Below are positions 40,536 to 56,652 of a DNA stretch of 64,000 bases, one piece after another. The stretch covers positions 21,382 to 85,381 of IMG/VR virus record IMGVR_UViG_3300017963_000025. One strand, given 5' to 3'. Each line of letters opens with the position of its first letter. The stretch's first letter is position 1. The position numbers were made by a program, and so were the translations under genes. The notes beneath the pieces are model-generated. The model saw only the letters and a list, made by a program, of their open reading frames with translations, was not told the origin of the DNA and ran no database searches. Source of the stretch: a virus.

Positions 40536-41117
40536 GTGGACGTGATTAAAAATTACCGATTGAAATCCGAAGAAAAACGGTTGGTCGTTTCCGAGGTGTA
40601 TGTTCCCGGCGATGTGGATTTGCAGGGGGATATGATGAGCGTTGAACAAGTGGAAAAAATGGCCTTCGAATTTATGAAAAACCAGCGCACCGGCAATGTG
40701 GACGTGAATCATGACTTCACCCCATCCGGTGCGTTTGTTGTTGAATCATGGATTGCCCGCCCCAACGATCCGGACGGGTTCAGGGAAGGGGCATGGGCCG
40801 TAACAATCCATATTCCGGATGACACCCTGTGGGCCAAGGTAAAATCCGGCGACCTGAATGCCCTTTCCATGGCTGGTAAGACCAAAACCGAATCCGGAAA
40901 ACAGGTGGTGTCCCTCATTACCGGGCTGGACGGATTTACCGAAAAATCCGCCTGTCCGGGGTTACCAGAACATCGGCATCCGGTCAGTGTGGCATGGAAG
41001 GACGGCGAAATCGGTGGAAAAACCGAAATCGCGTTTGATCACGACCACGACATCATTTCACTATCCGCCACCGGGGAAACACTCGGACATGCCCACCGGT
41101 TGGTGGTGGAGGATTAG
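40536..41117 (+). CDS. XkdF-like prohead protease
   Basis: EEKRLV..EVYVP...D.QGD.M..E.VEK.A..FM..VDVNH..VVESWI..GAW..LSMAG. Confidence 0.8.
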   Translation: MDVIKNYRLKSEEKRLVVSEVYVPGDVDLQGDMMSVEQVEKMAFEFMKNQRTGNVDVNHDFTPSGAFVVESWIARPNDPDGFREGAWAVTIHIPDDTLWAKVKSGDLNALSMAGKTKTESGKQVVSLITGLDGFTEKSACPGLPEHRHPVSVAWKDGEIGGKTEIAFDHDHDIISLSATGETLGHAHRLVVED

Positions 41118-42148: not shown

Positions 42149-43069
42149 ATGAAAGGTTCGAAAATTGTTGAAAAAGCGGACATCGCAGTCAGCAATCTGA
42201 TTAGCGACGGCGGATATCTCAACCCGGAACAGTCTGACCGGTTCATCCAAATGCTGCAAGACCAGCCCACCATTCTCAGGGCTGTACGTACCGTACGTAT
42301 GAACGCGCCACAACGGAAAATTGAGAAAATCGGATTCGGTTCTCGTATTCTACGGGCCGCGCCGGCCAGTGGCACCGCGCTTGCCGCAGGGGACCGAAGT
42401 GCGCCCACTACGGATATGGTAACACTCACCACCAAAGAGGTGATTGCCCAGGTCAATCTGCCCTATGACGTGCTCGAAGACAATATCGAGCGGGGCAACC
42501 TGAATTCAACCATCATGAGCATGATGGCTGAACGGGTGGCACTGGACAGTGAGGAGTGGTTGCTTTTGGCGGACACCGGGTCAGGGGATGCGTTTCTGGC
42601 GCTGGCGGACGGTGCCATTGTCAGCGCAACGGATCATGTAATTGACGAAACCGCCGCACCGGTGGCTGTCACAAAGGGCATTTTCAAAGAGGGTATCAAG
42701 GCGCTTCCGAACAAATACCAGCGAGTGAGAAACCAACTCAGATTTATGGTGTCCCCCGATGTCGCCACCGAATGGATTGACGAATTTGCGGATCGGGAAA
42801 CGGCGGAAGGCGACGCTAAAATGAAAGGGGGAGGGATCAACCCGGCCTATGGCGTTCCGCTGATGATATCCGCGCTGATGCCAAACAATACCTATCTGCT
42901 TACCTTTCCCCAGAACATGATTTGGGGCGTACAACGTCAGATCATGGTAGAAACAGACAAAGACATTGAAACACGGGTATATAAGATCGTGCTGACCATG
43001 CGGATGGATTTTGCCTATGAGGAAACCGACGCAGTGGTAAAATTTATCGGCATTAATCCGGATGCGTAA
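42149..43069 (+). CDS. major capsid protein (HK97 fold, XkdG-like)
   Basis: GGYLNPEQSDRFI, KIGFGSRIL, LEDNIE, N.IWGVQRQI. Confidence 0.9.
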   Translation: MKGSKIVEKADIAVSNLISDGGYLNPEQSDRFIQMLQDQPTILRAVRTVRMNAPQRKIEKIGFGSRILRAAPASGTALAAGDRSAPTTDMVTLTTKEVIAQVNLPYDVLEDNIERGNLNSTIMSMMAERVALDSEEWLLLADTGSGDAFLALADGAIVSATDHVIDETAAPVAVTKGIFKEGIKALPNKYQRVRNQLRFMVSPDVATEWIDEFADRETAEGDAKMKGGGINPAYGVPLMISALMPNNTYLLTFPQNMIWGVQRQIMVETDKDIETRVYKIVLTMRMDFAYEETDAVVKFIGINPDA

Positions 43070-45295: not shown

Positions 45296-46306
45296 ATGAC
45301 AGCACCTGTTACGCACAGTGCGGATAACTACAGCCTGGGAAAAGGGATCGGTTATTTCGACAAGATGGAAAACGGAAATTACACCGGTGAAATGGACCTG
45401 GGCAATTGCTCGGCACTGACTTGGAACGTGGATGTTGAAAAACTGGCCCATTTTTCCAGTCGAAGCGGGATGAGAAAAAAAGACAAAGAAATCACGGTGC
45501 AGGTGACCCCGCGATTTACGGCCACGGCGGACGAACTTACGCCGGACCTGATGTCCATGATGGGGATGGGCGAAATCACCCGGATGGTTCAGGCAGCGGG
45601 AGAGAGTAGTGTCACCGTTACCACGAAAAAAAATCGGTATTTCAAAGTTGGAACGCAACGAAACATCGGGATTACCGTGCTCCAATACAAAAACGGCGAT
45701 TCTGCGTGGAATTTGGACGCCACCGTATCCGGTGCCACCGGGAGCGGGACCATTGTCGGGATTGAGATTACGTCCGGCACACCGGCTGGCGGGGACGAAG
45801 CGGGATACCTGCTTTTGCAAAGTGTCACCCCCGGATTCGTGGCAGACGAGGCGATCACCGACGACGGCACCACCCCCGGTTCCGGTGACGCGGTGGCCCC
45901 CGAATCCTTTGACAGTACCCGATTCAGTGTGCGGGAGGGGAGCACCGAATATGTCAGAGGCACGGATTTCAGCGTGGACGGCACGACCGGACGAATATTC
46001 ATTCTGGCAGATTCCACGATTGCGGACGACACCAGTGTCACCGTTTATTACGGATATGAGGCCACCGAGTGGAGCCAGATCAAATGCTACGAGGACAGCC
46101 AGATCGAAGGCGCGTTCCGATTTGTTCAGGACAATCCCACCGGGATCAACAAATCCTTTTACGCACCGAAGGTGTCCGTGGCTCCGTCCGGGGACGTACC
46201 GTTGGTCGGAGAGGATTGGGAAACCATTACCCTTGAATTCGAAGTGTTGGCGGACGCAAACGGGGATTACATCTTCCTTGATATTCCGGACGAGGTGGTG
46301 ACCTAA
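45296..46306 (+). CDS. major tail tube protein
   Basis: NYSLGKG, DLGNC, HFSSRSG.R.KD, DNP.G, P.GD..L..EDW. Confidence 0.8.
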   Translation: MTAPVTHSADNYSLGKGIGYFDKMENGNYTGEMDLGNCSALTWNVDVEKLAHFSSRSGMRKKDKEITVQVTPRFTATADELTPDLMSMMGMGEITRMVQAAGESSVTVTTKKNRYFKVGTQRNIGITVLQYKNGDSAWNLDATVSGATGSGTIVGIEITSGTPAGGDEAGYLLLQSVTPGFVADEAITDDGTTPGSGDAVAPESFDSTRFSVREGSTEYVRGTDFSVDGTTGRIFILADSTIADDTSVTVYYGYEATEWSQIKCYEDSQIEGAFRFVQDNPTGINKSFYAPKVSVAPSGDVPLVGEDWETITLEFEVLADANGDYIFLDIPDEVVT

Positions 46307-46308
46307 TT

Positions 46309-46797
46309 ATGACGGAACCAAAACGACTGACCGACTCGGATTGGGAGACGTTGCTCCCGTCCGAGTCGGTGACGATTGCGGAAGGGGTGTCCGTGCGATT
46401 GCAACCAATGGGTATTGCGGATATCTGGGTGGCGGTAAGACTGGTGTACAATGTGTTTGATCACATTGTCACACCGGTGACCGAAGTATTGAAAAACCAG
46501 GAGGACACCCAGGATATGATTGCCCGTGTCCGGCAAATCCTGACTCACGCGGATGTGCTGAATGTGTTACAGCGCGAAGCACCGGAATTGTTGGAACGGG
46601 CTACCGGTATCCATCGGGAGGATTTGCGGAAGATGCCCCCCGCACCTTTTTCGAAGTTAATGATTGGTGTGGCGGATATCAATCTGAAAAGCCACGAAGA
46701 ACTGTCAAAAAACTTGGGATGCTTGGCGGATCGTCTGAAGATGATCAGGCAGGGTCCGGACACCGGTGGGGCATCGGTGAAGCCGTCGAGCATTTGA
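46309..46797 (+). CDS. tail assembly chaperone (G)
   Basis: Between tube and tape measure; contains A AAA AAC slippery site. Confidence 0.75.
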   Translation: MTEPKRLTDSDWETLLPSESVTIAEGVSVRLQPMGIADIWVAVRLVYNVFDHIVTPVTEVLKNQEDTQDMIARVRQILTHADVLNVLQREAPELLERATGIHREDLRKMPPAPFSKLMIGVADINLKSHEELSKNLGCLADRLKMIRQGPDTGGASVKPSSI

Positions 46798-47066
46798 TCG
46801 AAGCCGGACACAGTTTCGAATCAATCAAATCTTATAGTCTCGGTCAAATCGGGCTATTTATGCGAAGTTCTGTCAATCTGCGAAAAAGCAGGGATACGGA
46901 ACTGATGACCATGCATCGGTTAGCCTATCACGCCACCGCCGAATCATTCATGAAATTGGTTCGGGGGGAGGAAACCGGAAATTCTCCGGAACCGACCAAA
47001 AAAGAGGTGGAGGACGGGTGGGCCAAATTGAAAAAACTGGCGGGACGAATTAACAGGCGAGGATAA
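46707..47066 (+). CDS. tail assembly chaperone -1 frameshift extension (GT)
   Basis: A AAA AAC at 46707-46713 leads into -1 frame open to 47066 (LIEAGH.FESIKSYSLGQIGLF). Confidence 0.75.
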   Translation, partial: KKLGMLGGSSEDDQAGSGHRWGIGEAVEHLIEAGHSFESIKSYSLGQIGLFMRSSVNLRKSRDTELMTMHRLAYHATAESFMKLVRGEETGNSPEPTKKEVEDGWAKLKKLAGRINRRG

Positions 47067-47072
47067 AGACGG

Positions 47073-50000
47073 ATGGCGGGTCCGCTCGAAAAAATTGTTC
47101 GGATTGTCGTTCAGGCGGTCAACGAGTCAAAAAAGGCATTGACGCAGACCAGTGCCGATCTGAAAAAGGTGCAATCCGCATCTGATACGACGGGCAAATC
47201 CTTTGATCAATTGGGCAAGAAAGAACAAAAACTTGCCCAACAATCCAAAGGACTGGCGGACAATTTCGGCCAATTAATGTCTGAGATGTCCTCGCTTGCC
47301 ATGACCGTGGCCGCAGTGGCCTTTCCGGTGACCGAGGCGGCCAAATTCGAGCGGGCCATGTCAGAGGTGGCCGCAATTTCCGGGGCCACCGGTAAAGACC
47401 TTGAAGGACTGACCAACGTTGCCCGTGAGATGGGGCGCACCACCGAGTACTCGGCCACCGAAGCGGCCAGCGGCTTAAAATATCTTGCCATGGCGGGGCT
47501 GGATGCCACGCAATCCATGACCGCCTTGCCTAGTGTGTTGCAACTGGCCCAGGCCGGAGCACTGGACCTCGGACAGGCGGCAGATATCGCAACCAATATC
47601 ATGACCGGTTTCCGCATGAACGCGGAAGACCTGGCCGAAGTCAACGACAAATTGGTGGCCACCTTCACCACGACCAACTCCACCCTCGGTGAGATTGGTT
47701 ATGGCATGTCCTATGTCGCGCCTATCGCATCCGGTCTGGGGGCCAATTTCGATGACCTGACATCCTCCATGGGATTGCTGCATAATGCCGGCATCAAGGC
47801 AAGTATGGCCGGTACATCCCTCCGGGGTGCGTTGGATGCGCTGTTCAATCCCACCGCGAACGAAGCGGAAATGATGGATGTGTTGGCGAAGCGGATTGGA
47901 AAAACCAGTCTGGAAACCCGCGATGCGGAAGGAAATTTCATCGGGTTCCTGGGTATTGTCGAACAGTTGGAAGACGCCAACCTGACCGCTGCGGAGGCCA
48001 TGCGCCTGTTCGGTCAGAGAGCGGGACCGGCAATGGCGGCACTCCTCGGACAGGGATCCGCCGCATTAAAAGATCAGATTGAATACCTGGAACAGTCCGA
48101 AGGGATCAGCGAACAGATTGCCAAAACCATGACGGACAATACCATTGGTGCGTTCAAAGAACTGCAATCGGCGGTATCCGGATTGGCTATTGAGATCGGG
48201 AACAAGCTACTCCCGATTATCACCAAGGTTATTGACGAGATGACCAAGATGGTGGGGGCGGCCACCTCCCTTGCCCAGGAATTCCCAAATATCGCAAAGT
48301 ATGTTACGCTTGCCGCCACCGCGTTGGTGGGTTATGTTGCCGCCACCAAAGCGGCAAATATCGCCACGATGGCATTCGGGGCCACTGCCACCAAAGTGTT
48401 CGGCGCGGTGGCCGCGTTACTGGCCGGATGGCAAATGGGCCGGTTTATTGGGGAATGGCGCGGATTCGGAATCACCATTGACGAAATCGTTCAGCAAATG
48501 TACGGGAGACTATTCCAAGCACTGAATGAAATCGGGGGGTGGTTCCAAAAGGCGACTAACACGGCGAAAGCGGCGTGGGCATCCATGGTGTCCGGGGTGT
48601 TGCAAGGTATTCTCGCGCTGATGGACATGGTGGACCGGGTGCCGGGAATCGGGGATATTCTCGGCATTGACCGGGAAGGGGATGCACGGCAATACATCCA
48701 AAATCTGGTTACTTCGTACAATCAGATGGGCGCGGAAGCGGCGGCGGCCAATGCCAAAATCGAGGAGAGCGTCAAACGAAAAAATCAGGCCCATCAAGAT
48801 ACGATTGATATGATTGATCGTGAGGGCAGACTTGCGGTATTGGCCGAACAGAAACAGAACTTGGAGCGCGAAAAGGCAATTACCCTCCAGGAGGAAAAGA
48901 AAAAAGCCACCGCCGAGGTCACCAAGGAAATCCAGAACGCCCAAAAAGCCGTGGATCAAATGGGCAAGCGCCTTGGCGCGGAGGCAGACAAATTCAATCT
49001 GCTACGTACCAATGCTCAAACGGCGTTGGACGACATCGGCACCCTGATTGAGGAAAACATTGAATCGGCTTGGGAAGGCGCTGACACCGTGGACGCGGTG
49101 GGCCGTGCGCTGGATACCCAACTATCGCTTATCGAGGACCACGAAGAAAAGAAAAAAGATCTAATCGAAGCGGGGGCCGAGGCATTTGTCACATCCGCCG
49201 AAGCACGGAGAGACGTTGAACGAAAGACACAGGAAGAAATCCGCAAACTTGAATTTGAAACCCTGCAAAAGAAGCGGGATGCTTATGAGAGGGCGGCGGA
49301 AGCACTACAGGACCAGCTTGACGAGGGGTTGGAACAAGAAAAAGAGATTGCGGATGAAATTGTTGCCATTCAGGACAAGGTGAGAAAAGCCCGAATGACG
49401 GGTGCGGAACGACTGGCCGAACTGCGACAAAAACAAATGTCCGAGGAGGAGGTGTACCAAGCCAATCTTGCCAGTGTGCAAGCCAAATATGCGGAAGCAA
49501 ATCGGATCATGGCCACGGATACCGAGCGGGCCATTGAGTTGATCAATGATGCCATGCAAGAGGCCGCAAAACTGGACGATGAGGTCAAAGAAGGCACAGA
49601 AGTATTGGTAACGGCGGACGAGGCATCTCAGGCGGCAATCAAAAATGTTGAGCAGGGAATGGCGCTTCTGTCCAAGGCCGAACAAACCCGCGTATCCGCG
49701 TTGAAATCCACACTGACCAGTACTGAACAACACAACAAAGCGGTGGCGGATGAGCTTAAAAATGTCAATAAGCGATTGGATGACACCTCCGCAAAAGTGG
49801 CCGAGGGATTTCAGGTCGAGGTCAATATTGACTTGGGCGATTTCGCCCAACAAATCGCGGAGATTACCAAGCAGCGTGAGGTGATTGTCGCGGCATCCAC
49901 GGATTTCAATCAGGCCAACCAGAATTTGGGCGCACTCCTCACCAAAAAAACGGAGATTGAAAAAGGAGTTACAATTCAGGTGGAAGCGGATTATGCCCGT

Positions 50001-52625
50001 GCCATGAAAACAATCGAATACACCGAACAGCAATTAAAGGGTATCGAAGGGGCGAAAATCCGGGTGGATGCGGATACCGAGGGGGCCAATCAGAACATTA
50101 CGCGACTGAAAGAACATATCAGTACCGTGGAGGATGTGCAAACCACTATTGCCGTGGATTCAAGCGGGGCCACCGCCACGATTGGTGATTTGCAATCCAG
50201 GGTATCAGACTTGCGCGACCAAGTATCCGAACGGTTGCAAACCAATATTGACACCTCCCAGGGTGCGGCGGAAATGGTCGCACTACAACTACAGGCGGAT
50301 GATTTGCAATCCGGCATATCCAATCTGCAAATGCAGGTTGACGTTGAAAATGCAAAGCGGGATGTGGAAGCCACCCAACAAGTGGTAAATACGCTGACCG
50401 GTATCGTGGATCAGGGGGCCACCTATACGGTAAATACCGGGGAAGCCGTGGCAAGCATTGAATCCGTGCAATCCGACATAATGAATTTGTCTGCCATGCT
50501 GGACCGGGAAACCATGACGGTTGACATTCAAACAGTGAAATCCCGCGAAGCGATGCAAGCACTGGCCCAGGAACTGGTTCGTATTGAAGAACAAACCGGC
50601 GAACCCTATCATATCCGGGCGGACGTGGACGACACAAATGTAGAAGAATTTTCACTCCGTATCCGTGATCTGAACGAGGAAGTACGGCGAATCAAAGAGG
50701 AAAAGGTCACGGTGCAAGTGGACGCCGATCTGTCCGGCGCACAGCAAGAGGTGGACAACCTGGCCTACGGAATCGAATCCTTGGACGATGAGGCGGAAAA
50801 CGTGGAAATCCTGCCCGTGGCCGCCGATGTCAAAGGCGGGGAGGAAATCGGCCAATTAAATCAGGATTTGGAATCAATCCCTCCGGAAACCGAAACCACG
50901 GCAACGTTTGACGCGGGCAAAGCATTGGCGGGTATCAACCAAGTAAAACAGGCTATTGAATCTATCCCGAAAAATGTTACTACAAAACACAAGGTCGAAT
51001 TTACCGGGAAGGCATCCCCCGAAGGCCCGCTGATGTCCACGATTGACACCGTGACCACCGGGCTGAAAAATATGCAAGGGGTGGCCAGTCGGGGGGCATC
51101 TTTCAATGTGGACTTTGATACCGGCAATGAGATCAAAAATATCGCGGATGGTATCAAAGGCGTTCGGTTACTCTCCGCGACACCCATCCAAGTAAAATTG
51201 GATATTGATCCAGCAAGAAAGGCAGCGGACGCACTACGGGACAAATACCAAAAAATTATTCAGGAATCAAGAGAAATGCAATTGAAACTGGAAGCGGATC
51301 GGCAAGAGCAAATGTTTGCGGGGCCGTCTTCCAGTCTGTGGAAGGCTTTTTACGATCAATCAATCAGAATAATTGACAAATATCAAGGTCGAATTGATAC
51401 AATTGATCATAAATTTCCGCCATTGGAGGTTGACGCATCCCAGATCGAAGCGGCGGAAACGGCCATACAAAATTTTTCCGACCGTGCGGAGGGGTTGCAA
51501 TCCGCCTATGCGGGAGTATTGGAAGAGCTTGAAAACCGCCTGACAACACTTCGAGATGAAATTGATTCTATTAACGCGGATATTGCCGGGGAAACCGCCA
51601 CCACGGACCAACTACTCGAACAGTTGCATCAGGGTACGCTAACAGACGAGGAAAAATGGTATCGCCAACGCGAACTTTATGAGAAGCAATATCAGGATGC
51701 GGTGGAACAGATGCAAGCCGGGCAGTTTGAGGCGGCGGCAGAAGGATTCAAAGCGGCGCGGGATTTGGCTGCAAACTTGGCCACCGAGGTAAAAGACAGC
51801 AATGGCGAAGTGGTCATGAGTTTGGAAGAGACTACCCAACTTGCCCGTGATTTGGTAATCAAGTCCGGGGAACAAGTGACCGAGGCACTGACAAAACAAC
51901 GGGAAGAAATGGTATTGCAACAACAGCAAGTCAAAAAATCCATGGAGGAAACCAAATCCGTGGTTGCGGAACTTTCCGGAACAGTGGCCGGTATGGGGGA
52001 TTTGCTCGGACAGGAGTATACCGTGCAAATTGATACCTCCGAAGCGGAAAAAAATCTGGACGCTTTGGAGGAACGATTGCGTAATCTTAGCGCCGAATCC
52101 GGTAATGGCGGAAATAGGGGTGCGCCGGGTGGCGAGCCTATGGCATCCGGGGGGAAGGTGAAAAAATCTTTGATTCGTACCTCTCCGGGAGAGTGGTACT
52201 TTGGAAAAGATATTGTCAGTCGGATTGGCGTGGCCACCATGGACGCAATCAACCGGGGGTCTGCGGCTATCAAGGGGTTCGCATCAGGCGGACGGATACG
52301 GGGATCGTCGGCGGGAGACAGTGTGCTGATGGCGGCGGAACAAGGGGGGTATGTAATTCGAAAGGCCGTGGCCCAGGGAAATCGAAATCTGATGAATTCG
52401 ATTCTGAACTATCCGGAGCGAGTGGCCGGGATGATGGCGGGGGCCATGCAATCCGATATTCCAAAATATGCAACCGGAGGCATGATTCCGGAACAAAATC
52501 AGAACAACTTGGGAAAACTGGAACTCACGCTCGGTGAAACCCGGTTGCCACTGCGCGGAGAATCGGATCAGATTGGCGCGTTTATGGACAAGGCACGACG
52601 TGATAAACTGAGACGGAGGCAATAA
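47073..52625 (+). CDS. tail tape measure protein (TP901 family)
   Basis: FERAMSEVAAISGATG, T.YSATEAA.G..YLA.AG, GIKASMAGTSLR; C-terminal ASGG/ATGG repeats. Confidence 0.95.
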   Translation: MAGPLEKIVRIVVQAVNESKKALTQTSADLKKVQSASDTTGKSFDQLGKKEQKLAQQSKGLADNFGQLMSEMSSLAMTVAAVAFPVTEAAKFERAMSEVAAISGATGKDLEGLTNVAREMGRTTEYSATEAASGLKYLAMAGLDATQSMTALPSVLQLAQAGALDLGQAADIATNIMTGFRMNAEDLAEVNDKLVATFTTTNSTLGEIGYGMSYVAPIASGLGANFDDLTSSMGLLHNAGIKASMAGTSLRGALDALFNPTANEAEMMDVLAKRIGKTSLETRDAEGNFIGFLGIVEQLEDANLTAAEAMRLFGQRAGPAMAALLGQGSAALKDQIEYLEQSEGISEQIAKTMTDNTIGAFKELQSAVSGLAIEIGNKLLPIITKVIDEMTKMVGAATSLAQEFPNIAKYVTLAATALVGYVAATKAANIATMAFGATATKVFGAVAALLAGWQMGRFIGEWRGFGITIDEIVQQMYGRLFQALNEIGGWFQKATNTAKAAWASMVSGVLQGILALMDMVDRVPGIGDILGIDREGDARQYIQNLVTSYNQMGAEAAAANAKIEESVKRKNQAHQDTIDMIDREGRLAVLAEQKQNLEREKAITLQEEKKKATAEVTKEIQNAQKAVDQMGKRLGAEADKFNLLRTNAQTALDDIGTLIEENIESAWEGADTVDAVGRALDTQLSLIEDHEEKKKDLIEAGAEAFVTSAEARRDVERKTQEEIRKLEFETLQKKRDAYERAAEALQDQLDEGLEQEKEIADEIVAIQDKVRKARMTGAERLAELRQKQMSEEEVYQANLASVQAKYAEANRIMATDTERAIELINDAMQEAAKLDDEVKEGTEVLVTADEASQAAIKNVEQGMALLSKAEQTRVSALKSTLTSTEQHNKAVADELKNVNKRLDDTSAKVAEGFQVEVNIDLGDFAQQIAEITKQREVIVAASTDFNQANQNLGALLTKKTEIEKGVTIQVEADYARAMKTIEYTEQQLKGIEGAKIRVDADTEGANQNITRLKEHISTVEDVQTTIAVDSSGATATIGDLQSRVSDLRDQVSERLQTNIDTSQGAAEMVALQLQADDLQSGISNLQMQVDVENAKRDVEATQQVVNTLTGIVDQGATYTVNTGEAVASIESVQSDIMNLSAMLDRETMTVDIQTVKSREAMQALAQELVRIEEQTGEPYHIRADVDDTNVEEFSLRIRDLNEEVRRIKEEKVTVQVDADLSGAQQEVDNLAYGIESLDDEAENVEILPVAADVKGGEEIGQLNQDLESIPPETETTATFDAGKALAGINQVKQAIESIPKNVTTKHKVEFTGKASPEGPLMSTIDTVTTGLKNMQGVASRGASFNVDFDTGNEIKNIADGIKGVRLLSATPIQVKLDIDPARKAADALRDKYQKIIQESREMQLKLEADRQEQMFAGPSSSLWKAFYDQSIRIIDKYQGRIDTIDHKFPPLEVDASQIEAAETAIQNFSDRAEGLQSAYAGVLEELENRLTTLRDEIDSINADIAGETATTDQLLEQLHQGTLTDEEKWYRQRELYEKQYQDAVEQMQAGQFEAAAEGFKAARDLAANLATEVKDSNGEVVMSLEETTQLARDLVIKSGEQVTEALTKQREEMVLQQQQVKKSMEETKSVVAELSGTVAGMGDLLGQEYTVQIDTSEAEKNLDALEERLRNLSAESGNGGNRGAPGGEPMASGGKVKKSLIRTSPGEWYFGKDIVSRIGVATMDAINRGSAAIKGFASGGRIRGSSAGDSVLMAAEQGGYVIRKAVAQGNRNLMNSILNYPERVAGMMAGAMQSDIPKYATGGMIPEQNQNNLGKLELTLGETRLPLRGESDQIGAFMDKARRDKLRRRQ

Positions 52626-53054: not shown

Positions 53055-54503
53055 ATGCAATCTTCCGATATTGTGTTACGAAAATCCGAAACGGTGACCG
53101 ACACAGGTACTAACGGGGGAATTATTGGGTATCAGGTGGTCAATAGTGGAAACAAACACGCGCTGTTTCCCATGATATCCCCGTCTGACCGGGATGTGTC
53201 CGGTGGGATGGACCGACTACGCAAATGCGGTTTGTGTAATATCAACTCGGACGACGAAACCGCGTATGACATGCGGGTGTTTTTTTCCTGTCCGACCAAC
53301 GGGCAGGATACCATTGTGCTGCACCTTGGCACCCAGAGCAATATCCAGAGCGAACTTACCGGATATGAACAGCGATACGGATGCGGAACACTGAACACCG
53401 CGCTGTCCGGGGGAGAAACATCCGTCGAACTGGTCATGGAAACACAGGATGTGGGATTCGCACCCGGGGGCTACCTGTTCCTGCATGACCATCTGATGAC
53501 GGGCCAAACCGTGGACGACGGAAGTGTGGCCGGCTTACCCAAAGTCCGTGCCGGGGATTCGTGTGAGGACGTGGCGGGGGAATGGCGACGCAAAGCGTTT
53601 ACCACGAATGTGACTTATCCCTATGGGAGATATTTGGGTGACGGGGTGGTGTATACTGTTCATACTGGAAGTCACCAACAACTAATCAAACTCAAAGAAT
53701 ATAAAACTGAGGATGAGGTGATTGCAGCGGTCCCGACAGACAACACGGCAACCCAAATTACACTGACCGCGCTGACCCCCGGAAACGGAATCGAGGGCAA
53801 CGATGAGTATCAGGTAGTAGTGACCGCCACCTGTGACAGCGTAACACGAACCGTAACGGTAAACGGAGACGGCAGTTGTTCGGGGTACTGTGCGTCGGGT
53901 GAGCTTGTACTTGATACCGGTATCTGGACGACATCTATCGACTGGCTAACCGCGCCGGACGGGGATACCAATATCACTGCCACGTACTATACAAAGAATT
54001 ACACAAAAGTTACAAACACCTATACGGTGGAGCTGGACGAACAGGTAAACTATGCCTTTGCGGTTGGAGACACATACGGAGCTGGGGTGTTGGCCCAAAG
54101 TGAAATAAAGACAAGTTTTGACAACGTGAATGTGAATTCCACGAGTGGAACATTCGACTCCGTTACTTATCCAATTACACTGTTTAATATTGGTACAACT
54201 GAGGATGCGATATCACTGATTTTCTCCTCAGCGACGGCCTACAGTTGCACCTCGGTAAATTACGGCAGTTTGGGGAGTGGAAGTATCACAGCAGATTTCA
54301 CCCCGCTGAATTCGGACACCGGCACGTCCATGTTTACCATACCAAGTGATGCATTCGGTGGTACATACGCACCGGGGGACACCGTGACGTTTTCCACCCA
54401 TCCGTCAATCCTGCCTGTTTGGATGGTGCAGAATATCCCGGAAGGAATGGCCGTGGTGGAAGAGGATGACAACTGGATACTGAGTATGATGTTTTTGGGG
54501 TAG
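53055..54503 (+). CDS. virion structural tail protein
   Basis: Thr/Gly-rich beta composition, NGG....V..G.K..LFP N-terminus. Confidence 0.65.
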   Translation: MQSSDIVLRKSETVTDTGTNGGIIGYQVVNSGNKHALFPMISPSDRDVSGGMDRLRKCGLCNINSDDETAYDMRVFFSCPTNGQDTIVLHLGTQSNIQSELTGYEQRYGCGTLNTALSGGETSVELVMETQDVGFAPGGYLFLHDHLMTGQTVDDGSVAGLPKVRAGDSCEDVAGEWRRKAFTTNVTYPYGRYLGDGVVYTVHTGSHQQLIKLKEYKTEDEVIAAVPTDNTATQITLTALTPGNGIEGNDEYQVVVTATCDSVTRTVTVNGDGSCSGYCASGELVLDTGIWTTSIDWLTAPDGDTNITATYYTKNYTKVTNTYTVELDEQVNYAFAVGDTYGAGVLAQSEIKTSFDNVNVNSTSGTFDSVTYPITLFNIGTTEDAISLIFSSATAYSCTSVNYGSLGSGSITADFTPLNSDTGTSMFTIPSDAFGGTYAPGDTVTFSTHPSILPVWMVQNIPEGMAVVEEDDNWILSMMFLG

Positions 54504-54528
54504 GTAGCAGGAGAGGAGAAATCAAGCC

Positions 54529-54831
54529 ATGCCATATCCGAGTGAACACGCCTGCCGGTTAAACAATCCCGGCAAATATGTGCGCATACGGCGACGAAAT
54601 AACTACGCACAGGTGGACGGAAAACAGGTGGACTATATTTTCGGGATACGCAGGGACGGGAAAACAGAAACACAGGCCATGCGGTTCCCGGTGTCCGCTT
54701 GGACCGCATCCGCCGCACGACGTTATTGACGAGAAAAGGGGGGCCAGTTTGAGGCCGCCATGCCAAAAAAATACTATGTAGTTCGGTATTGCAAACCGAA
54801 ATACAGAAGACTGATTAGGATAATTCGATAA
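54529..54831 (+). CDS. small protein with in-frame UGA (54727-54729): candidate selenoprotein or pseudogene
   Basis: Strong RBS; MPYPSEHACRL..WTASAARRY-UGA-REKGGQFEAA; readthrough ends at TAA abutting next ATG; SECIS-like hairpin 54739-54759. Confidence 0.55.
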
Positions 54832-56652
54832 ATGCCGGTTGTACTATTCGGAAAAGCACAGGATCCGTATGTTTATACACACTACGGGTTTGTGGTGGAA
54901 ACACCCTATGAGACTGGATTTGCGTTGATTACGGATGTGCCGTATTCCATGACAAATGCCATACGGGTGATTACCACGTCCGAATTTGACAATCAATGGG
55001 TAATCAGGATGACCACACCGGAACCGCTCAACGTGTCCATTGCTATTATATGTGAAGTTCCGACGACCTTGGTTATCGAGAAAATGATCAGTATCATTGT
55101 TGCCGCACCGGAAAGCACGGTGCCGGATACGCCGGATGTTCAAATTCCGCCACCGACCCAATCCGTTGGAGGGACAACGGAGCGCCCGATTGTTCTGGAC
55201 CACCCGGAGGGAACATTTGAGTATTGTGACTACGCTGTATATTTTAACAACACATTGATTACCCACGACGTGTTGGACGGGCTGACTATTAACCGCAACT
55301 TGGACACGGTGTTTGACGAGATAACGTTGCGCACCCATTCAACCGTAGTGACGGAAGCATTGGCGAACTATGACGACAATGCGTTGTTCGCAGAAAACAG
55401 TATCATTGTGGTGATCGGAACGGACATATACTCATTCATTGTGGAAGACCGACAAAAAGCGCAATATGGCATCATGGAGGTATGGGGGCGCTCATCCGCA
55501 GCACTCTATGATAAGCCGTACCATAAGGAATTGACCATTGTCGCGGAAGAGCAAACAAGCACCGGGAGTATTATTGTCGCCACTGGTGCCGGAAAAGTGG
55601 TATCGTGGGAAGTCCATTCATGGACAATTCCAAAAAACGCGTCATTTTACGGAACACCGATTGACATTCTGATGAGGCTAGCGGAAACCGTCGGTGCGGT
55701 GGTACGCAATACGGCGGACGGCGGACTGGTGGTAAAATATCCGTTTGTCAGTCCGGGAAAAATGGATTCATATACGCCGTTTGCCGATTTTTCCGGGGAC
55801 AATCTGTTTCGAATCGGGGAGAGCGCTGAAAAAGGCAACGGATACAACCGGGTTGAAGTTATTGGGCATCAGGACCAGGATATCACGCCGATTATTAAGC
55901 GCAGCATCATTCAAGAGGGCCGACAAATAATTACGGACGATGCGGAAAACCCGATGATCGGGGATACCGTGGATATCGTTGTTTTTCTTCCCTATTATGA
56001 CCCGGAAGCCAGTACCGGATATGATCTGAATGTTACCGGTGGTCCGAATCGGGTGATGCCGTGGAGTGTACAATATATCGAAGTTCAAGAGGTGGTCGGC
56101 GTGGACAACGGTGTCGGTAGCACATCGGTTCCTGTCCGTCACATTATGGGTTTTCAATCGTTTGGCGGCAATCCGGGTTCCGCCATTATGATCGCGCCAA
56201 ATGCCACCGAATTCAGAACATCCAATCAATCTTTTACCGGTTCAGGGTTGCTGCGATATATGGCATACGGAATCGGCTACCGAGTGATAGGTATGCCGGA
56301 CGTGGACGAAACCGGTATTGCCGCCGAATACCGTCCGAGTCCCCAGGTGGATGTATTTATCACCCGTTCCGCCGATACAAGATCAGATGCGCCACCGATT
56401 GTTGATGACCTGATTACGGATGAGAAAGTGGCCAAGATGCGCGGGCTTCGATTTTTTATAGACGAGGGGTATAATACCTATTCGGTTCCGGTCCAATTTC
56501 CGTATACACAGGGACTAGGGGACGGCGATCTGGTATCCGTAAATGAGGCGGATATCGGAGTTCGGGGAAATTATATAGTTAAAGACCTCGTGATCTCATT
56601 AAACGGACCTCAGTATATTATGGAAGGCACACTTGTGCGGTGGAGCGGATAA
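54832..56652 (+). CDS. tail hub/baseplate-like protein
   Basis: EVWGRS..A, GTPIDILMRLA..VGA.V, YNRVEV, IVDDLIT.E.VA..RG. Confidence 0.6.
   Translation: MPVVLFGKAQDPYVYTHYGFVVETPYETGFALITDVPYSMTNAIRVITTSEFDNQWVIRMTTPEPLNVSIAIICEVPTTLVIEKMISIIVAAPESTVPDTPDVQIPPPTQSVGGTTERPIVLDHPEGTFEYCDYAVYFNNTLITHDVLDGLTINRNLDTVFDEITLRTHSTVVTEALANYDDNALFAENSIIVVIGTDIYSFIVEDRQKAQYGIMEVWGRSSAALYDKPYHKELTIVAEEQTSTGSIIVATGAGKVVSWEVHSWTIPKNASFYGTPIDILMRLAETVGAVVRNTADGGLVVKYPFVSPGKMDSYTPFADFSGDNLFRIGESAEKGNGYNRVEVIGHQDQDITPIIKRSIIQEGRQIITDDAENPMIGDTVDIVVFLPYYDPEASTGYDLNVTGGPNRVMPWSVQYIEVQEVVGVDNGVGSTSVPVRHIMGFQSFGGNPGSAIMIAPNATEFRTSNQSFTGSGLLRYMAYGIGYRVIGMPDVDETGIAAEYRPSPQVDVFITRSADTRSDAPPIVDDLITDEKVAKMRGLRFFIDEGYNTYSVPVQFPYTQGLGDGDLVSVNEADIGVRGNYIVKDLVISLNGPQYIMEGTLVRWSG

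Follow-up and report, generated by a model that had tools for sequence, protein, structure and literature searches.

An in-frame UGA on a conserved cysteine codon suggests a selenoprotein in a BRX-like domain family of phages

Introduction

Does the UGA that interrupts a small late gene of an uncultured sediment phage end the protein, or is it read as selenocysteine (Sec)? The gene lies at positions 54529-54831 of a stretch of 64,000 nucleotides, hereafter the window, which corresponds to bases 21382-85381 of an 85,381-bp complete virus record with terminal repeats (IMG/VR record IMGVR_UViG_3300017963_000025). The initial annotation had proposed that the phage borrows the Sec machinery of its host to make a selenoprotein from this gene. 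This interpretation is supported here by homologues encoding cysteine at the codon, by the recurrence of TGA at the same place in other lineages, by contigs of ~24x depth and by the maintenance of the reading frame beyond the codon. On comparative grounds, we regard it as likely that 54529-54831 encodes a 100-residue phage selenoprotein in which UGA 67 specifies Sec. For the family, Sec at the UGA appears highly probable; the window gene, which lacks close relatives and an assignable host, is rated below the family.

Results

The gene and its in-frame UGA

The elements of the locus are the following:

54510-54519, + strand: ribosome-binding site (RBS) GGAGAGGAGA, 9 nt 5' of the ATG, read directly from the sequence
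54529-54726, + strand: first 66 codons, MPYPSEHACRL...AARRY, including Cys9 in the EHACR strand, from the translation of the open reading frame (ORF)
54727-54729, + strand: in-frame TGA (context UGAC), candidate Sec codon 67; the aligned column of the homologues is mostly Cys
54730-54762, + strand: rest of the conserved domain, REKGGQFEAAM, with the helix end and the final beta-strand FEA, from family conservation and the AlphaFold (AF2) model
54739-54759, + strand: hairpin resembling a bacterial selenocysteine insertion sequence (bSECIS), GG.GGCC / GGCC.CC, with apical loop AGUUUGA at 54746-54752, from RNAfold
54763-54828, + strand: non-conserved basic C-terminal tail, residues 79-100, PKKYYVVRYCKPKYRRLIRIIR; predicted local distance difference test (pLDDT) ~55, and homologue matches stop at query 77-81
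54829-54831, + strand: TAA closing the read-through frame, followed by the ATG (54832) of the gene for a 606-aa tail protein, phrog_6079

The strong RBS, the in-frame UGA, the TAA flush with the next ATG and the 102-nt gap described in the initial annotation are all present in the sequence. After the TGA, 33 further codons are open in frame (REKGGQFEAAMPKK...IIR) up to the TAA at 54829-54831. Without read-through, 102 nt are left as a gap before the ATG at 54832; with read-through, the product has 100 residues.

TGA terminates 40 of the 103 genes of the window phage, ATGA overlaps included, and there is no in-frame TGA in the ORF of the 1,850-aa tape measure. The sole tRNA of the phage is a tRNA-Met, and a search for a suppressor tRNA or a phage-borne Sec tRNA in its genome found none. 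As TGA is an ordinary stop and only tRNA-Met is present, a phage-borne suppressor is excluded and genome-wide recoding of TGA (tables 4 or 25, or late-gene recoding) was ruled out. Coding density and stop usage of the phage are likewise ordinary.

Contigs at ~24x depth give TGA at 54727 with no variant; one comes from a sediment run and the other from a study of seawater or marine sediment. The two contigs with the TGA are equally long, so that the runs X1 and X2 are maybe one data set, and the fragment from run X3 ends at 54677, before the codon. Among the sequencing runs holding the locus, no RNA run is listed.

The UGA stands at a cysteine position

The initial annotation had aligned the UGA with a conserved Cys, and this alignment holds for proteins and DNA. 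Among the 150 best homologues, 143 of 149 have Cys at the TGA column, and column 9 (EHACR) is Cys in all 152 of 152 top matches. At the DNA level, we compared 274 unique copies from viral, metagenome and genome collections, 271 of which align at the column: TGC (129) and TGT (87) together account for 216 of the 271, and the remainder are Leu codons (49), GCA (1) and TGA (5). Comparative identification of bacterial selenoproteins asks for at least two Cys homologues and for TGA/Cys pairs in more than 50% of homologues (PMC1088965), and both are found in this family.

Inside the domain, the 274 unique copies have no stops other than these five TGAs. Any other first stop is a natural end at position 79-80, and none was seen at Trp58 (TGG) or at any other codon one step from a stop. 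This distribution bears on a simpler account of the window gene, namely that a recent and tolerated nonsense mutation (TGC or TGT to TGA, one transversion) struck the Cys codon of a dispensable accessory gene and left a dead fragment of 66 residues and 102 nt of decaying sequence. We consider such a mutation unlikely, as the five stops of the family would all have fallen on one codon. Moreover, the window gene has kept F74, E75 and A77, residues conserved to at least 90% across the family, as well as an open frame as far as the next ATG; none of the five TGA genes has lost the in-frame G..FE.A motif or the conserved F, E and A that come after the stop.

The residues at positions 9 and 67 vary together. 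In an alignment of 79 sequences, the pair is Cys/Cys in 63, Ala/Leu in 13 and mixed in 2, and it ranks 23rd of 2,926 pairs by the mutual-information score MIp; it is Ala/Leu in the more distant members. This covariation suggests that positions 9 and 67 are in contact. A second covarying Cys pair was noted at window columns 25 and 33, which is Cys/Cys in 36 of 78 sequences and has the top MIp score (alignment A3). It is present in the TGA gene L203 described below, and the window protein has Asn25 and Gln33; the domain therefore occurs in 4-Cys, 2-Cys and 0-Cys forms.

The TGA recurs in other lineages and is maintained

The TGA is not unique to the window genome: the same codon was found in at least two other lineages verified from DNA, L203 and the L258 clade, which makes three such lineages with the window. 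L203 is a 10.6-kb contig of a Pseudomonadota metagenome-assembled genome (MAG) and reads ...EAKKH-TGA-GGHKGSFEPA, followed in frame by a Peptidase_S78 (164 bits); the stub before its TGA is annotated at NCBI as a 65-aa hypothetical protein. The L258 clade consists of viral contigs in three haplotypes (L258/259/260, L261/262/264 and L265) that read ...DARRH-TGA-TDH(E/N/A)GRQFEPA, followed in frame by a prohead protease and then by a capsid gene. Two further lineages are indicated by protein calls, as the gene products P0074 and P0152 (97% alike) and P0258 end one residue before the column; no relative of P0074 was found in viral_contigs.

The identity of each of the five stop lineages to Cys-encoding genes (63-80%) exceeds its identity to any other stop lineage (at most 65%). 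Five state changes are needed on the best tree, and its well-supported branches force at least three; in the approximately unbiased (AU) test on four stop lineages and 66 columns, a single clade was not rejected (p = 0.23). Both outcomes argue against decay, since with multiple origins a chance repeat on one codon is improbable, and with a single clade the TGA has survived to ~45% identity.

Maintenance can be followed within the L258 clade. The TGA is kept in all three haplotypes, while the flanks have diverged with synonymous differences (pS) of 0.40-0.72 and a ratio of nonsynonymous to synonymous differences (pN/pS) of 0.13-0.31. In the 20 codons from the TGA to an internal ATG there are seven variable sites, five of them at third positions (CAC/CAT, TTT/TTC, TCG/TCA, AGT/AGC and the third base of one hypervariable codon), and one in-frame deletion of 3 nt; pN/pS is 0.08-0.57 and pS 0.075-0.30, below the flanks. 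The low pS is as expected if RNA structure and an RBS overlap the coding sequence here. As the TGA and the downstream frame have been kept over deep divergence, recent decay is excluded in this clade, and the persistence of the TGA over pS 0.4-0.7 with synonymous-type change after it points to a functional state in the family and away from a nonsense mutation.

The same region allows the opposite view to be considered, in which the UGA is a true stop, the 66-residue N-terminal piece is functional and the later sequence is a regulatory RNA or a spacer (in L203 and the L258 clade, a leader and RBS for the protease). The purifying selection on the 65-66 upstream codons of the L258 clade, the strong AAGGAG RBS and ATG that follow in L258 and L203, and the RNA-level constraint indicated by the low pS right after the TGA would all fit. 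However, G..FE.A is in frame in all five TGA sequences, the changes after the TGA are third-position changes and an in-frame 3-nt indel, the predicted fold described below needs residues 67-78, and the window has no fused gene or internal start downstream that a leader could serve. A true stop is thus very improbable.

A strong RBS (AAGGAG or GGAG) with an in-frame ATG separates the domain from the prohead protease at L258:1739-1761 and L203:1740-1758, and the Cys-encoding L263 has the equivalent. This arrangement suggests that a nested fusion and a free protease are made from one frame. Among the short homologues, P0260 and P0261 turn into unrelated sequence mid-domain and look frameshifted or broken; truly damaged copies of the family therefore also occur in metagenomes, which is a point in favour of a nonsense mutation in the window gene.

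The UGA interrupts a domain with a predicted, BRX-like fold

A full HMMER scan gave 1,567 related proteins at E<=1e-3, whose matches cover query residues 1-78/81, past the stop. In a profile search among near-length proteins, the best 120 all have at least 77 aa, so shortened products are hidden there. The ~78-residue domain is a mobile module. Fusions place it on either side of Peptidase_S78 prohead proteases, C-terminally on portal proteins and N-terminally on a Gp23-type capsid protein; it also occurs with an AAA ATPase and as stand-alone proteins of 80-110 aa. The fusions P0079, P0022, P0009 and P0032 include an intein-bearing protein of metallo-beta-lactamase fold, an AAA ATPase, a portal C-terminus and a Gp23-type capsid N-terminus, a range of partners that is unusually wide for a domain of this size. 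Given the fusions to protease, portal, capsid and AAA ATPase, the likely role of the domain is protein-protein attachment in virion assembly.

The AF2 model, built with the 79-sequence alignment, has a pLDDT of ~95 for residues 1-78 and ~55 for the tail, residues 79-100. It comprises strands at 6-10, 19-29, 32-40 and 46-54, a helix at 60-69 and a strand at 73-75 (FEA). As residue 67 is in the helix and FEA is the last strand, a stop at codon 67 removes core structure.

Two independent lines, Pfam and a structural search, suggest a remote relation to BRX. Firstly, Pfam BRX (PF08381) matches 14 of 79 members, one of which (L005, 25.1 bits) passes the gathering threshold of 24.5 bits; the other matches, at 13-21 bits, include eight members of the Ala/Leu type. 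Secondly, the top match via a wide structural search was 6l0v, the BRX domain of RLD2 (Z 4.8, root-mean-square deviation 3.2 Å over 51 residues). BRX is a three-stranded sheet with a helix that binds partners by strand addition beside beta3 and alpha1 (PMC6941992). The window protein has no BRX match at E<=1, and the domain is therefore named BRX-like and not a BRX member. Foldseek against PDB gave no match at E<=0.001, a profile search against PDB sequences gave none, and the only match in BFVD was the same domain inside a prohead protease. The ORF itself belongs to no family in Pfam or PHROGs, and a word-index protein search with the 100-aa read-through product matched only itself. A ChaB signal is absent from all 79 family members of the alignment.

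A hairpin follows the UGA in every TGA gene

In the bSECIS model, a loop of 3-9 nt on an upper stem of 4-16 bp has a G as its first or second base, often with G or U next to it, at a spacing of 16-37 nt from the UGA and with a minimum free energy (MFE) of at most -7.5 kcal/mol (PMC13188914). RNAfold places a hairpin with the predicted loop AGUUUGA exactly 16 nt after the UGA of the window gene, at 54739-54759, with the structure ((.((((.......)))).)), that is, 4+2 bp and a loop of 7 nt. The hairpins of the three lineages compare as follows:

Window: loop AGUUUGA; spacing 16 nt; -12.4 kcal/mol (local fold); passes the strict model
L203: loop GUUC; spacing 17 nt; -12.8 kcal/mol (local fold); passes the strict model
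L258 clade: loop AGUU(U/C)GA; spacing 19 nt; -9.6 to -10.8 kcal/mol (48-nt fold); passes only with a bulged A tolerated after the third pair

The proposal of a SECIS-like hairpin thus stands for the window and L203, whose hairpins lie within the published constraints, and for the L258 clade it stands only if the bulge is allowed. The stem of the L258 clade has 7 bp and is invariant across the clade, hence without covariation; in L263, the Cys-encoding relative nearest to it, the codon is TGT and an equivalent hairpin is absent. Under a bulge-tolerant rule, set before the L258 clade was found, five of five TGA sequences (three of three lineages) pass, compared with 32 of 210 Cys genes (15%). 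All three lineages would pass by chance with a probability of 0.0035, or 0.0049 after matching for GC content.

Selenocysteine machinery in the genome carrying L203

One TGA gene can be assigned to a cellular genome. The MAG that holds L203 (G001, ~4 Mb) was searched for selA, selB and tRNA-Sec and has all three: selB at 399 bits with a second copy at 304 bits, selA at 384 bits, and tRNA-Sec at 68 and 52 bits, all above the cut-offs, with one tRNA-Sec just 5' of a selB. The two selB and two tRNA-Sec loci are C578:175-2052, C470:6333-8225, C768:7301-7394 and C470:6095-6184, and the duplication may reflect a mixed bin or be real. For the window phage, INPHARED has no near-identical phage, and the nearest cultured phages, at 31-48% identity, have Vibrio, Stenotrophomonas and Agrobacterium as hosts, and also Bacillus and Streptomyces.

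These results also bear on a leaky UGA, read independently of SelB by a near-cognate tRNA (Trp, Cys or Arg) so that a minority of the product is the full domain, as in the read-through of the Q-beta coat gene. Among bacterial stops UGA is the leakiest, and termination in E. coli is reported to be weak in the context UGAC. Any read-through would explain why frame and motifs are conserved after the stop, and the hairpin evidence for a SelB-specific element is moderate. Nevertheless, leakiness gives no reason for a stop placed exactly on the conserved Cys column in five lineages, the next base varies (C, G or A) among the lineages, with no common leaky context, and the MAG of L203 carries Sec machinery. 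We therefore consider programmed leakiness improbable.

Genomic context

The tail-operon setting given in the initial annotation is correct. The late operon is of the siphovirus type, and the UGA gene is placed 3' of the tape measure, between tail genes. The order is:

40536-41117: head protease
42149-43069: capsid-like protein, followed by an adaptor
45296-46306: major tail protein
47073-52625: tape measure of 1,850 aa, followed by proteins of 130 aa and 482 aa, the UGA ORF and the 606-aa tail protein

The domain is absent from the head protease of the window phage, and the UGA gene stands alone as an accessory copy within the tail module, with no fused gene or internal start downstream. The interval from the major tail protein to the tape measure contains two overlapping ORFs, 46309-46797 and 46719-47066; this is the usual place of tail assembly chaperones made by programmed -1 frameshifting. 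At 54420-54455, a low-depth 199-nt contig of run X1 matches 36 nt at the end of the upstream 482-aa gene with six differences and unrelated flanks; this may be a short segment shared with another phage.

Discussion

Five features are found together: Sec/Cys pairing, an exclusive and recurrent stop position, its long maintenance with coding-type change after it, a bSECIS-compatible hairpin in each of the TGA genes, and Sec machinery in the only genome that could be assigned. Combined, they are what the comparative criteria for calling bacterial selenoproteins ask for (PMC1088965).

A number of observations weigh against this reading. The window lineage is a single sequence, in which a recent change of TGC or TGT to TGA would look alike. 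P0074, P0152 and P0258 are known from protein calls alone. The wider family does not always have Cys (Ala/Leu in 49 copies), and the residue is therefore no catalytic necessity. The protease of L203 and the L258 clade needs no read-through because a strong RBS and ATG lie after the domain. As to hosts, the L203 contig may be mis-binned, which bears on the MAG as host of L203, and the cultured relatives at 31-48% identity are too distant to infer the host of the window phage or its Sec machinery. As to the RNA, a strict rule with a contiguous upper stem of at least 4 bp is passed by two of five TGA sequences and 29 of 210 Cys genes (p = 0.15), and the L258 clade fails it. The window hairpin does not stand out from shuffled sequences (z = -0.5; 52 of 200 fold as well), and no hairpin of a TGA gene beats its own shuffles (z -0.5 to +0.5). 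Part of the propensity to form the hairpin arises because the Gly codons before Phe-Glu and the Ala/Pro codons after are complementary, and some Cys genes fold a nearly identical hairpin. The SECIS families of Rfam gave no match at E<=10 in the window region and none at E<=1 in L203, L258, L261 and L265; as bacterial SECIS elements are diverse, this negative is weak evidence. Combined, the RNA evidence is consistent with Sec insertion and moderately supportive, not decisive.

Some of these points favour a nonsense mutation in the window gene specifically: besides the single sequence, read in two runs that are maybe one data set, Cys-encoding relatives cover the range in which its hairpin falls (at the 20th percentile of stability, with 15% of them passing the bulge-tolerant rule), and the gene is an accessory copy in the tail module of a phage whose head protease has no such domain. 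Set against these are the exclusive position of the stops, their maintenance in the L258 clade and the intact frame in the window, and Sec at codon 67 remains the preferred interpretation.

With Sec at codon 67, SelB of the host, together with Sec-tRNA(Sec), would insert Sec at the UGA under the guidance of the hairpin 16 nt downstream, and translation would then run through the end of the domain to the TAA at 54829. Ribosomes failing at the UGA would release a 66-residue fragment without the helix end and a core beta-strand, which is probably non-functional. From the covariation, Cys9 and Sec67 may form a selenylsulfide or a shared ligand site that fastens the N-terminal strand to the helix. 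More speculatively, the UGA may also set the yield of full-length protein by the selenium status of the host, since Sec insertion is normally inefficient; in the protease-fused forms, it may set a selenium-dependent ratio of fusion to free protease.

A broader picture can be offered tentatively. There may be a natural family of phage selenoproteins in which a structural Cys of a BRX-like attachment domain turned into Sec several times independently, aided by the hairpin-prone coding of Gly...Phe-Glu...Ala/Pro. In this picture, the ratio of fusion to free protease would be tied to host selenium, and a Cys9-Sec67 selenylsulfide would provide a cross-link that survives in reducing, anoxic sediment. 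This combination of proposals is doubtful as a whole.

If Sec at the UGA is confirmed, phages exploit the Sec machinery of the host to make structural or assembly proteins of their own, Sec can stand in for a non-catalytic and probably structural cysteine, and a SECIS can arise repeatedly out of ordinary coding sequence. Gene callers would then systematically shorten such phage genes, as in the 65-aa call for L203 at NCBI. Phage fitness would be tied to selenium supply and to hosts with the Sec trait, which would provide a new host-range marker for uncultured sediment phages. There is also an engineered precedent: T7 was evolved with an engineered Sec code to ask whether virions gain stability from selenium bonds (PMC8923235), and the present family would be the natural counterpart to that work. 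Our literature searches found no natural phage selenoprotein, and neither phages nor viruses are mentioned in a 2026 review of prokaryotic selenoproteomes (PMC13188914).

Several known systems can be compared with the candidate. The closest are bacterial selenoprotein genes with a SECIS inside the ORF that is read by SelB, such as E. coli fdhF (PMC13188914, PMC1088965). These are alike in having UGA at the Cys of homologues with conservation on both sides, a downstream hairpin (loop of 3-9 nt, G then U in the first two loop positions, spacing of 16-19 nt, MFE below -7.5 kcal/mol) and a sporadic Sec form among widespread Cys forms. In contrast to them, the candidate gene is carried by a phage without Sec machinery of its own, its product is a small BRX-like attachment domain and no recognisable oxidoreductase, and Cys is replaced by Leu (with Ala at the partner position) in a whole subfamily, so that it is no classic catalytic residue.

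In a review of viral recoding, the only viral selenoproteins are the glutathione peroxidases of the poxviruses molluscum contagiosum and fowlpox (PMC8310308). They share with the candidate a virus gene that uses the Sec machinery of the host, and in fowlpox the SECIS is also inside the coding region. However, the poxvirus proteins are captured cellular redox enzymes of eukaryotic viruses with a SECIS of eukaryotic type, whereas here the domain is phage-specific, the hairpin is of bacterial type and the UGA apparently arose several times within phages.

With respect to the domain, the model remotely resembles BRX (PF08381; complex of the RLD2 BRX with the LZY3 CCL, PDB 6l0v, PMC6941992) in a three-stranded antiparallel sheet followed by a helix. 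The phage domain adds the N-terminal strand (EHACR), the C-terminal strand (FEA) and the Cys pair, and BRX has been described from plant signalling proteins.

Finally, L203 and L258 recall nested and read-through phage head genes (the internal starts of lambda C/Nu3 and the UGA read-through of Q-beta A1) in that one frame holds the domain, a UGA, an RBS with ATG and the protease. With a UGA and an internal start in one frame, a long fusion and the protease alone are both expected. The window gene differs from the lambda and Q-beta examples in that it stands alone and in that its stop falls on a conserved Cys codon, not on a domain boundary.

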